Assembly (NCBI GenBank): GCA_046331705.1
Contig: JAXLQJ010000043.1
Span: 1 to 64,000 of the forward strand
Direction: 5' to 3'
DNA from: a bacterium
Lineage (GTDB): Bacteria > JADJOY01
DNA: 64,000 nucleotides
Shown: positions 7,085 through 10,293 of the stretch, piece after piece
How positions within the stretch are numbered: the first letter of the stretch is position 1
How the letters are laid out: every line of letters begins with the position of its first letter
Notes under the pieces: model-generated
The model's database searches: none
Seen by the model: only the letters and a program-made list of their open reading frames with translations
Told to the model about the DNA's origin: nothing
Program-made: the position numbers and the translations under genes

Positions 7085-7121
7085 AAAAAAAATCGCGAAC
7101 GGCCCGCCTGACGGCGGGCCG
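7085..7121 (-). other. GC-rich hairpin (9-bp stem, 4-nt loop) followed by a T8 run downstream of the NACHT-CLec gene; DGR target hairpin and/or terminator
   Basis: CGGCCCGCC-TGAC-GGCGGGCCG at 7100-7121; A8 at 7085-7092 (T8 on the coding strand), 7 nt from the stem. Confidence 0.6.
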
Positions 7122-7134
7122 AGAGGTCAGGGAA

Positions 7135-7156
7135 CCAGAGAGCCAGAGACCAGAGA
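7135..7156 (-). repeat. Three near-tandem TCTCTGG heptamers downstream of the stop codon
   Basis: CCAGAGA on + at 7135-7141, 7143-7149 and 7150-7156. Confidence 0.8.
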
Positions 7157-7356
7157 GGCCAGCGTCCAGCCCATCATGGGGGAGAAACAATCACGCGAAA
7201 ACCGATGATGACGAGGCGGTTGCCGGGATCGTAGTCGTAGCGGGCCGCGGACCGGGCGCTGCGTAGATCGAAGTAGTACGCACCGCCACGAACCACACGG
7301 CCGGAGTCGGCGCCAGCATCGAGCTTCTCTCGCCCGCCATCGGCGCGGTACGGGTA
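7150..7356 (-). repeat. Putative DGR variable repeat (VR1) plus conserved 3' flank
   Basis: 207-bp ungapped direct repeat of 10087-10293; mismatches almost all at codon positions 1-2 of NNC/NNT codons. Confidence 0.8.
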
Positions 7357-10017
7357 CTCGGCCGCTACGGAGCGAGTCCATTCCCACACGTTCCCGCTCA
7401 GCTCCTCGACCCCGTCCGCGCTGGCACCGTTCGAGAAGCAACCCACAGCGCTGGGGCGGCCGATGCGCGACTCGGACGTGTTTGCCCGTTCCGAAGCGAA
7501 CTCGTCTCCCCACGGATAGCGGCGCTCGGGTAACGGGTTCGCCGATCCATCAGCGAGGGTCTTCCCACCGCGCGCGGCCTTCTCCCACTCGGCTTCCGAG
7601 GGGAGCGTCACGCTCTGCTCCGGGCGAATCTTGCGAGAGGCTCGCCAGCGTTCGGTGAGCCAACGTGTGAACGCCAGCGCCTCGTACCAGCTCACCCCGA
7701 CCATCGGTTGGTTGGGCAGTCCGTAGATGGCAGGGAGAACGCATGGGCCGGCCGTCGGCTCCTCCTCGAAGCGACTCACGATGGTTCCCGACTTCCACAC
7801 GCCCGCGGCTTTCGCTTCCGGCCAGAACCGTTCTTCGGCGTACCCGCCCGCGGAAACGAACGCTGCGAACTGGCCACACGTGACCGGCCACTTGCCGATC
7901 CGGAAACCGGGTACATCCACCTCGTGGACCGGCTTCTCGGGCATCCACGGTGCCTGATCGGTACTCCCCATCCGGAACGGGCCCGCAGGCACCACGCAGA
8001 AGGCCAGCTCATCGACGGAGGTCACGGCCTCGCGCGGATCGCCGAGCTGTGCCAGCACGCGCCCCGCCTCCGCCCGCTCGACTGCCGGCAGCGGGCATGC
8101 GAGTGCCTCGACCAAGCGTCCGATCAGGCGCTCGAGGTAGGCGCCGCCGCCGTCCGGTTCCTCATGATCGGCCTCGATCGTCTTGCGCTCGGCCACCACC
8201 GCCATTCGCCCCGACCACACCAGCGCCCTCCACTCGGCAGCCGCTGTGGGCGCGCGTGTGGGGCAGAGGTGATACGCGAGGTCGAGAAGCTCGTGGGTCC
8301 GGCGCAGGTTGAAAAAGAGCTCCTCGCCTCCCAACGCCACGGCCAACGACCAGAAATCCCCCTCCTCGGCGTGCTTGCGAATCGGTCGCTCCGGGTGGCG
8401 TTGCGAGACCAGGAACGCGCCGGCGAGGTACTCCTGGAACGTGCGGTGTGGAAATCCGTATGCGCTCGGCTTGCCCGGAGCCCCGCCGCGCCCGATCACG
8501 AGCCCCGCACACGTGTCCACGTAATCCAAGAAATGCTCGGCAGCGGCGGCGCTGCCGAGATGGTGGCGATCGAGGAGGTCGATGGCCGTCCCCCGCGCCA
8601 GGTCGCCGGCGCCACTACCGTCTCCTTGCGTGCGGTTGCTGCCGGCGTCGCTGCCCAGGCGGTGAGTCTCGTACGCGAGCCGTTCCATCGCCTCACGGAG
8701 CTTCTTCGTCTCGTGAAAGAAGGGCTGGATCGATTCGTGAATCCCAGCACTTCCCGCACGGTGCCGCTGCCAGCGCTGGATCAGCACCTGGACCGCGAGG
8801 TCGTAGACCTTCACCCGCTCCTTCGGTAGCCCGACGTCGCGCTGGTGGAGCAAGGCCATCGTGGTCAGCAACATCGGGTTCGACGCGAGCTCGCGCAGAT
8901 CGGCACCCGTCGCCGCGGTCGCGAGCTCCGCGGCACGATCCTTGGCTTTGCGTTCGTCGAAGCGCCCGATCACACGCTGCGCCTCGTACCAACCGCTCAC
9001 GAAGGCGCGGATCTTCTCCTCGTCGAACGGCGCCAGCGTGAAAGCGGTGAAGCCCCGAAGCTCGCCTTTGCCCTCGTACGAGCGCGTTCGGCAGGTCACC
9101 ACCACTCGTTTCACCTGCCACGCTCGAAGGGCGGCGCTCACGGTCTCGCGAACCCGCTCTCGCGCAGCCTCCGGCACCTCGTCGAGGCCGTCGAATCCCA
9201 ACAGTACCGAGCCTGCTTGCAGCCGCTCCCTGAGCGTGTCCGCAAACGACTTGGCTCCCAGCGATTCGAGGTCGTCGGCGAGCTGATCTTCGAGGGCGTG
9301 GCAAAGGGCTTGGGCGCGCTTGGCGTCACCGAGACGGTCGATGTCGAGCGCGACGAGCCGCGGCACCAGATCGCGCAGCGCCACCAGGATCGGAAGCAGG
9401 TTCCCCAGGTCCATGCGGGGTGCCGCTCCCTTGCCCGGTTTGAGCCCCAAGAGCGTCCCGCACTGCCGCGCCACGACGTTGCGCAGAAACGCGCTCTTCC
9501 CGGACCCCGCGTCTCCCAGGAGCACCAATCGCTCTTGATCGCGGAAGGCCTCGATGGCGCGAACCGGAACCTGATCTCCACCTCCAGGTCGCCCTGCGAT
9601 CAGGTGCCGATCGGGCTCTGCGTTGCGCTCGGCCTTGGTCAGCTCGCGGAACGTAGTGGTGTCCAAGTCGATGTATACGTCCTCGAGGGTCGGTTCCTTC
9701 TCGCAGCTCTCGTCCCCGCCGAGCGGCGCCAGCGGCAACAACATGCAAGCGTGGCGCAGCCTGGTCAGGTAGAGCGCTTGCGCCTCGCCGGGTCGAAGCT
9801 CGTTGCCAGACTCTGCCGCTCCAGAGCCGTGGTTGTGAACGTGAACGCTCTTGTCGACCATCGCGCCCGAGCCGATCACGTCGCCGCGAACCTCGGCTTC
9901 GGCTCCCACCGCCAACCCGTGTTGCGCCACCGCGGTCGCGCCATCTCCCTGCGCGCTCGCGGCCCCCGTGCCCACGACCCGCGCCACGAAGCGCTTCACA
10001 CCGTCACGAAGCCCCAT
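7174..10017 (-). CDS. NLR-like protein: N-terminal G/A/V-rich motif, NACHT NTPase, FGE-sulfatase (C-type lectin fold) domain
   Basis: Walker A [10 protein letters not shown], Walker B [29 protein letters not shown]; C-terminal [25 protein letters not shown]...IGFRV. Confidence 0.9.
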   Translation of the reverse strand: [947 protein letters not shown]

Positions 10018-10086
10018 GGTGACCTCTCACAGCACGGCCTGCGGACCGGCACGAAGCAAAATGGCGGCAAACGAGCGAGCGAAAAG

Positions 10087-10293
10087 CCAGAGGGGCCAGC
10101 GTCCAGCCCATCATGGGGGAGAAACAATCACGCGAAAACCGATGCTGTCGATGCGGTAGTCGGGATTGAGGTCGAGGCGGGCCGCGGACCGGGCGTAGCG
10201 AGGATCGTAGAAGTACGCACCGCCACGAACCACACGGCGGGACTCGGCGCCAGCATCGAGCTTCTCTCGCTCGTCATCGGCGCGGTACGGGTA
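10087..10293 (-). repeat. Putative DGR variable repeat (VR2) plus conserved 3' flank
   Basis: Repeat of 7150-7356 at offset 2937 bp; identity continues 24 bp past the TGA with one mismatch. Confidence 0.8.

Follow-up and report, generated by a model that had tools for sequence, protein, structure and literature searches.

How do two neighbouring genes for NOD-like receptor (NLR)-like proteins come to end in almost the same sequence, one in which every codon that differs between them changes an amino acid, and what could have written it? The question is raised by a locus in the 64,000-nt stretch of bacterial DNA analysed here (the window), which is contig C43 of a metagenome-assembled genome (MAG; 8.17 Mb in 118 contigs, 95.7% complete, 70% G+C). 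The two genes, geneA and geneB, each encode a NACHT domain and a C-terminal FGE-sulfatase/C-type-lectin (CLec) domain. It is probable, on the evidence set out below, that a diversity-generating retroelement (DGR) wrote the last ~145–200 nt of both as variable repeats (VRs), from a common template outside the assembled contigs. A first-pass annotation, made from the sequence of the window, had called the shared end a DGR-type variable repeat derived from one template; all the sequence hallmarks that can be read independently of a template bear this out, while the third, adenine-rich copy beside a DGR reverse transcriptase (RT) that it foresaw was not found.

A shared 3′ tract free of synonymous change

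The genes and the parts of their common end are as follows.

7174–10017, minus strand: geneA, 947 aa, NACHT and FGE-sulfatase/CLec (from the open reading frame (ORF), its translation and Pfam)
10111–13716, minus strand: geneB, 1201 aa, TIR, linker, NACHT and FGE-sulfatase/CLec (from the ORF, its translation and Pfam)
7157–7356, minus strand: homogenised tract of geneA, from alignments within the genome and across species
10094–10293, minus strand: homogenised tract of geneB, in register with that of geneA at an offset of 2937
7206–7278, minus strand: hypervariable core of the geneA repeat (VR-A), where four copies differ in 14 codons, at 23 nucleotide sites
10143–10215, minus strand: hypervariable core of the geneB repeat (VR-B), offset by 2937 from VR-A and in register with it
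7164–7205, with a second copy at 10101–10142, minus strand: invariant 42-nt 3′ block (last 9 codons, stop and 10 nt), a candidate homing element resembling an initiation-of-mutagenic-homing (IMH) site

Positions 7150–7356 and 10087–10293 align without gaps at this same offset and are identical at 186 of 207 positions, with 21 differences. In the last 60 codons, 16 codons differ between geneA and geneB, 16 of them nonsynonymously and none synonymously; 18 of the 20 coding mismatches fall at codon positions 1–2 and the other two at position 3 (7306 and 7264). The likeness continues through the stop and 24 nt beyond, where the single mismatch is at 7156. Directly upstream of the tract, synonymous differences resume, with five in 14 codons. 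The 16 differing codons, the lack of synonymous changes and the 18 of 20 mismatches had been claimed in the first-pass annotation and were reproduced codon by codon. Among codons that specify the same amino acid in both genes, a synonymous difference is found in 187/363 upstream vs 0/44 in the last 60 codons (Fisher P ~2e-13). The shared tract is real and well beyond chance.

Its 3′ edge is bracketed by two changes, one at 7163, which is species-specific and common to both paralogues, and one at 7156, which is paralogue-specific. The invariant 42-nt block just inside this edge is exact in both window copies, and no further copy was found in the assembly with 2 mismatches allowed.

Four copies from two species

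A congeneric sister-species MAG (G002; 90% complete and, like all the comparison genomes, an incomplete MAG) carries the pair in the same order, CAAX protease, geneB, geneA and DUF4124 gene. Its nucleotide identity to the window is 84.3% over 4.5 kb and 84.8% over 3.9 kb, with 84% amino-acid identity for the geneB orthologue. Two paralogues from each of the two species thus give a four-way alignment, and over the last ~42 codons of the four copies variation is found only in 14 codons, at 23 nucleotide sites, of which 10 are at codon position 1, 12 at position 2 and 1 at position 3. No codon varies only synonymously among the four, and the 42-nt block is identical in both G002 copies as well. 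Between orthologues, synonymous differences occur upstream in 192/741 (geneA) and 239/963 (geneB) codons of identical amino acid, while the last 40 codons have 0/28 and 0/30 (Fisher P ~2.7e-4 and 2.2e-4, two tests that are not independent because one presumed template is common to both). Scaffold differences between the species amount to one in ~150 nt, and synonymous ones to 0/58 vs ~26% expected. Since the tract has no synonymous change while its flanks are only ~84.5% identical, the scaffold appears to have been copied anew from a near-identical master after the two species separated.

Could such a tract have arisen with no retroelement, through recurrent gene conversion between tandem paralogues combined with strong diversifying selection on ligand-contact residues? 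The two paralogues are indeed in tandem, 2.9 kb apart, and the tract has a part that fits conversion: scaffold sites in 7157–7301 are identical in both paralogues and both species, and in 7302–7356 the near-identity is confined to this genome, which makes the within-genome tract 20 codons longer on its upstream side than the cross-species one, with two non-adenine differences in it. The change at 7163 could also have been produced by conversion. Conversion between paralogues, however, cannot hold a scaffold identical across two species, and selection leaves unexplained both the lack of any synonymous change in four copies and the fixed third positions of the NNC codons. We regard this explanation as very improbable, and two further observations that it leaves unaccounted for are given in the next two sections.

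The adenine signature and a canonical DGR in the same genome

The invariant coding positions of the tract are poor in adenine, with 5 A among 102, compared with 16–20% A in the rest of the two genes (binomial P = 2e-4). The variable sites are rich in it: their 92 cells (23 sites in four copies) hold T 37, A 36, G 10 and C 9, and A is present in at least one copy at 19/23 sites. This juxtaposition of an adenine-poor scaffold and adenine-rich variable sites is what a DGR would leave and is not explained by selection. The first-pass annotation had also guessed a template peptide; the guess was close, and the four copies correct it at two codons that it had taken for variable Asn, 7236 being an invariant Asp codon and 7212 a GNC codon that varies at position 2 only. 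Neither VR served as template of the other, and this candidate was rejected, A being found at only 6/16 core mismatches in each.

A separate observation concerns thymine, which at the variable sites is as common (37) as adenine (36) and far above G and C; the VRs of the DGR on contig C10, described next, are spread more evenly. The excess of T could reflect selection for Tyr, Phe and Leu, or a different misincorporation bias of the RT.

The window's MAG holds one canonical DGR, which supplies a standard against which the window's repeats can be set. It lies on contig C10, at ~179735–183322 (locus L022), in the order CLec target, HRDC-like ORF, RT, template and CLec target, with these parts (locus coordinates):

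413–540: VR of the first short CLec target
768–1121: HRDC-like accessory ORF
1288–2298: RT, 336 aa, intact, with an IG...SQ motif
2335–2462: template, rich in Asn codons
3372–3498: VR of the second CLec target, with a 1-nt gap relative to the template that shifts the reading frame in the ORF list

The IG...SQ motif we take to be a DGR hallmark. Mismatches between the template and its two VRs fall at template adenines in 16/17 and 14/16 cases. Placed in register with the window's repeats, the C10 template adenines coincide with 15/23 variable sites (Fisher P = 1e-7); the overlap agrees with a DGR, although it would also be expected if these sites were simply the contact residues of the fold, as conversion with selection would likewise predict. 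The C10 template cannot itself be the donor of the window VRs, because only 57/107 scaffold positions match.

C10 carries the only DGR RT assembled in this MAG. PF00078 matches in the whole assembly are confined to contigs C2 and C10, and none is on the window's contig; nor does the window hold a third copy of the repeat, so that the annotation was right to find neither RT nor template there. Machinery of this kind recurs in the sister species, where contig C611 of G002 (L033, the whole contig being 2457 nt) carries a DGR-type RT, 39% identical to the C10 RT and convergent with another NLR-like CLec target; both ends of the contig are cut and no template is on it. As for the C10 type of template, all that G002 has is a VR-like copy of 81% identity, within a short ORF, and no orthologous cassette.

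Natural variation

The locus turns up in 20 public runs; these belong to 11 studies, on activated sludge, wastewater and digesters. Variation was read from Logan contigs, which drop rare variants, and not from raw reads, for four runs from four studies; what follows covers the differences and contig pieces listed for them, beyond which there are 85 differences and 487 pieces. In run X2, an independent sludge metagenome of 2025, one contig of ~130 nt (depth 6.5 of 10.9) has 11 differences from the geneA VR, and 11/11 of them are on the 23 variable sites. The restriction has a conservative P = 2e-7, in which only the 69 positions between k-mer anchors are counted. The other X2 contigs at the locus show 0–1 differences in 155–1715 nt, except for one divergent piece. 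A variant restricted in this way is the second observation that diversifying selection leaves unexplained.

Elsewhere the repeats are constant. The geneB VR is identical in contigs of all four runs, dated 2015–2025, the only change being at 10243, outside the hypervariable core, and the geneA VR is identical in X6 and in X1, which may be the source sample. Checked on contigs, the polymorphism confined to variable sites that the first-pass annotation had proposed to look for is seen in one allele, that of X2, and not in the geneB VR of the four runs or the geneA VR of two. Among natural protein alleles, an exact-cluster look-up recovered nothing but a 101-aa fragment in which the VR is not included, and in a search with the last 160 residues none of the 120 best matches, out of 756, exceeded 56% identity.

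The same data bear on whether the locus is an assembly artefact, made of mis-joined or collapsed contigs of a metagenome bin. The genome is a MAG, and in each of the four runs the unitigs end at the shared 3′ block; yet contigs of these runs, from four studies, span both VRs with 0–1 differences, and the independently assembled sister MAG has the same two-gene layout with different VR letters and conserved synteny. An artefact is scarcely credible.

The missing template

If a DGR wrote these ends, where is its template? A BLAST of the VRs against the whole assembly, from which the annotation had hoped for a third, non-coding copy beside an RT, recovered no such copy and only the two window VRs and a second pair of genes at 68–69% identity. 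An adenine-tolerant positional scan of both strands of the 118 contigs, in three sub-windows, ranked the VRs of that second pair highest (126 and 123/186 scaffold positions) and then fell to a background of 89/186. Three short invariant blocks, searched with up to 2 mismatches, were found nowhere else in the assembly, except for a few matches of a 19-nt GC-rich block that are taken as chance, and the assembly has 0 masked N bases. The genome has 20 CLec-type C-termini, and a template was found only for the two C10 targets; an A-bias detector run over all 20 surfaced only the C10 template, which is not cognate to the window VRs.

The second pair, on contig C12 of the same MAG, resembles the first.

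C12, 2318–5209 and ~5225–8381: tandem NACHT and FGE-sulfatase pair (locus L045)

Over their shared last 40 codons the two C12 genes have 10 nonsynonymous and 0 synonymous differences, and 8/10 of the variable codons are in register with those of the window in a protein alignment made by eye (P ~0.008). No template for this pair was found in the assembly either, and the family was not found in the five relatives searched. The second gene is frameshifted inside its CLec domain, at ~7935–8026, in the assembly; this may mark a pseudogene or an assembly indel.

A number of points weigh against a DGR with an unassembled template. First of all, no cognate template was found in the window's own MAG (95.7% complete) or in that of the sister species (90%). 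Searches of 61 relatives' genomes and of the class and phylum (6 genomes) gave only the orthologous pair of G002 and no template, and no template was found in IMG/VR, GTDB representatives, JGI metagenome contigs, phages or plasmids, where the matches were limited to the contig of G002 itself and to 63 nt of an FGE-family gene on an Acaryochloris plasmid, at 78%. Second, the C12 pair is also template-less, and therefore two templates must be missing at once. Third, the 7302–7356 segment has four differences between geneA and geneB, of which those at 7306 and 7302 are without adenine, and no convincing hairpin or cruciform follows the VR (z-scores −0.18 to +1.71, with no covariation). Fourth, the X2 variant contig, being anchored by shared 31-mers only, could come from geneA, from geneB or from the copy of another strain. 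Finally, the identity of the VRs across studies implies that turnover is slow or absent in the dominant strain. To these searches we add that the RT loci of G001–G003 and G005 showed no template/VR pairs and no match to the window VRs, and that no unbinned template contig was among those listed from the four runs, whose contigs drop rare variants.

Absence of a template from an incomplete bin does not show its absence from the cell. The smallest contig of the window's MAG is 3.2 kb; short cassettes would drop from such a bin, given that C611 of G002 is 2.4 kb and cut at both ends. A systematic cause is plausible, namely that cassettes broken at the template and VR repeats fall out of the bin.

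Some of the points above also suit relic VRs, that is, repeats written by a DGR in the past whose cognate RT and template have been lost, leaving the receptors frozen. The template is absent from two MAGs of two species, the geneB VR is the same in four studies spanning ten years, as is the geneA VR in two, a second template-less pair exists on C12 with one member frameshifted in the assembly, and targets that no longer vary are reported in PMC10907252. On the other hand, with 0/58 synonymous differences vs ~26% expected and flanks ~15% divergent, the loss would need to have happened very recently, and separately in each species, and the X2 variant allele has all 11 of its changes on variable sites. 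Furthermore, both MAGs are incomplete (95.7% and 90%), and the DGR cassettes of the genus are on very short contigs such as C611. Relic VRs are, in our estimation, improbable. Writing by a DGR from an unassembled template remains the reading that we favour, because it explains jointly the site pattern, the adenine contrast, the zero synonymous change, the cross-species scaffold, the X2 allele and the DGR machinery of the lineage.

A more specific form of the favoured reading, which we put forward tentatively and with more doubt than conviction, is that the diversifier is uncoupled from its targets: one unassembled cassette, possibly mobile or unbinned, would serve one or both NACHT-CLec pairs in trans and would be near-unchanged in two species. 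Room for a separately inherited or exchanged diversifier exists because the presumed template is near-identical across species whose chromosomes diverge by ~15%. If this were so, template and RT would form a horizontally exchanged 'specificity writer' for resident immune receptors and would not be a vertically inherited part of the locus.

Domain architecture of the two proteins

The annotation's description of the two genes as NLR-like is supported by Pfam, which places NACHT and FGE-sulfatase/CLec in geneA (2.9e-8 and 7.7e-49) and TIR, NACHT and CLec in geneB (TIR_2 4.5e-23, with TIR also matched; NACHT 3.7e-9; FGE-sulfatase 7.7e-51). NACHT is above the Pfam cut-off in both, GSGKS-type P-loops are seen in both translations, and the FGE-sulfatase match extends to the last residues of each protein, that is, into the repeats. 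The proteins differ at the N-terminus, where geneB has the TIR_2 effector and geneA has none that was recognised. The first ~130 residues of geneA are homologous to the linker between TIR and NACHT in geneB (geneB residues ~286–400, E = 2e-6), and geneA is thus a TIR-less paralogue of geneB.

The C-terminal domain of geneA has PDB sequence matches to EgtB/FGE structures and also matches the DGR variable protein TvpA (2Y3C) with E = 1.7e-6 over residues 130–275 of a 277-residue query. Identity as an enzyme of the FGE/EgtB type was considered and rejected. The catalytic cysteine pair of FGE is presumably located in the segment corresponding to the VR, and the last ~70 residues of either protein contain 0 cysteines; filing under the NCBIfam enzymes EgtB or SenA was likewise rejected, with scores of 94–117 bits vs cut-offs of 360–420. 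From the lack of cysteine near the end and the sub-cut-off NCBIfam scores, the domain is predicted to be a binding fold and not an FGE/EgtB enzyme. The NCBIfam model of the NACHT antiphage protein EruA matches weakly, under its cut-off. PADLOC matches the TIR region of geneB to the candidate system PDC-S66, and none of its models matches geneA.

How the ends could be rewritten

On the favoured reading, an RT would copy the RNA of a template repeat and misincorporate opposite template adenines, and the invariant 3′ block would then direct the cDNA to each gene, where it would take the place of the 3′ end. About 14 codons would be randomised in this way, mostly AAC-type codons to NNC; by the genetic code, each gene could then take ~4^23 forms as DNA and roughly 1e13 as protein. 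The changes would be located on the ligand-binding face of a sensor of the C-type-lectin/FGE fold, fused to NACHT and in geneB also to TIR. A single template would serve both genes, and its likeliest location would be a short, unbinned or unassembled DGR cassette.

The pair is most likely one of NLR-like sensors whose specificity can be rewritten. By analogy with NACHT/Avs proteins and TIR defence systems of bacteria, binding of a ligand by the CLec tip might lead to oligomerisation of NACHT and, in geneB, to NAD+ cleavage or signalling by TIR; the TIR-less geneA might act as a partner or as an alternative sensor.

Neighbouring genes and other observations

The pair is flanked by the following genes, among which no RT, Avd or transposase is present.

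5856–7010, minus strand: DUF4124 protein
13829–14569, plus strand: CAAX protease
14691–17438, plus strand: M1 aminopeptidase

Downstream of geneA the sequence also has a terminator-like element.

7084–7120, minus strand: GC hairpin followed by a T-run (stem 7107–7095, then a run of T)

A larger hairpin within 7084–7120 was read off the sequence. Between the conserved 3′ block of geneA and this hairpin, at 7125–7157 (minus strand), a CTCTGG-like heptamer is repeated imperfectly in tandem three to four times; these repeats are kept in the geneA orthologue of G002 and are not seen after geneB.

Elsewhere in the MAG, the second PF00078 protein is of another kind.

C2, 163806–165167 (L021, 1051–2412): retron-like RT, 453 aa (PADLOC RT_other/RT_outgroup retron, E ~1e-150)

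Its gene adjoins a ClpA/B-like ATPase gene on the opposite strand and is unrelated to the DGR question. Two other observations concern CLec-type C-termini. Those at C1 ~345057–345391 and C111 ~3811–4081 are 98–99% identical over ~260 nt, from a recent duplication or from redundant contigs in the bin. That at C14 ~89320–89567 shares 71% identity with the C10 template over 126 nt, with 15/36 mismatches at template adenines; it may once have been a target of the C10 DGR and have decayed since. The class and phylum of the organism comprise 6 species-level genomes in 2 genera, of 5.5–8.4 Mb and 70% G+C.

Comparison with known systems

Sensors of this general design have been described as DGR targets before, and the precedent cited in the first-pass annotation does exist. 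Dore et al. (PNAS 2024, PMC10907252) report DGRs with two adjacent targets that have a central NACHT/nSTAND NTPase and a CLec VR at the C-terminus; in some, a TIR stands at the N-terminus. The sites that vary in these are almost all at codon positions 1–2, remote targets are served in trans, and incomplete loci occur (PMC10907252). Kaur et al. (2020, PMC7159879) report that NTPase conflict systems include FGS/CLec domains linked to DGRs, whose template lies close by or at another place in the genome. Paired NACHT-CLec DGR targets and remote targets are therefore already published, and the locus adds a well-supported further case whose cognate template and RT are unlocated.

The closest counterparts, from PMC10907252, are loci 3 and 6 of Thiohalocapsa PB-PSB1 and the 'clade 5D' cellular DGRs, which share with the window paired NACHT-CLec targets, TIR and variation at codon positions 1–2. 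Unlike these, the window's pair has no template found and no adjacent RT in either species, two pairs are template-less, and the host belongs to an activated-sludge phylum with 6 species-level genomes. What is particular to the window's genome is the presence of two template-less pairs, the synteny without an adjacent RT in two species and the near-perfect identity, across them, of the presumed template. With this locus the DGR-NLR pattern reaches a phylum that has hardly been sampled and that keeps appearing in wastewater and activated-sludge plants. Template-less VR pairs are recognisable from their letters, by the restriction to positions 1–2, the adenine-poor scaffold and the scaffold identity across species; standard DGR finders would miss such loci in fragmented MAGs, because they start from RT and template.

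The C10 DGR of the same genome is alike in that its VRs, too, are C-terminal, of FGE-sulfatase type and equal in length, and lie between the conserved motifs RGG and GFR. It differs in that its targets are short CLec proteins flanking the RT and are not NLR-like, and in its 3′ end. Among DGR proteins of other organisms, TvpA of Treponema denticola (2Y3C) is alike in its FGE-type CLec fold, with the VR at the extreme C-terminus. Mtd of Bordetella phage BPP-1 is the DGR prototype. TvpA and Mtd, however, belong to the surface proteins or the receptor-binding proteins of phages, and their RT, template and accessory gene lie in cis, whereas in the window's genes the CLec fold is joined to NACHT/TIR modules of cytoplasmic type, with the machinery unlinked.

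Finally, bacterial NACHT and Avs (antiviral STAND) proteins have an N-terminal effector, a central NACHT and a C-terminal sensor. The layout recurs in the window's pair, complete in geneB, where TIR is the effector; the difference is in the sensor, which here is a predicted hypermutable CLec domain and not a fixed repeat or sensor domain. Tandem receptors with and without TIR, syntenic in two species, with identical scaffolds and different tips, constitute a natural experiment, and DGR-diversified NLR-like sensors may be the closest bacterial analogue so far proposed to a somatically diversified receptor repertoire.

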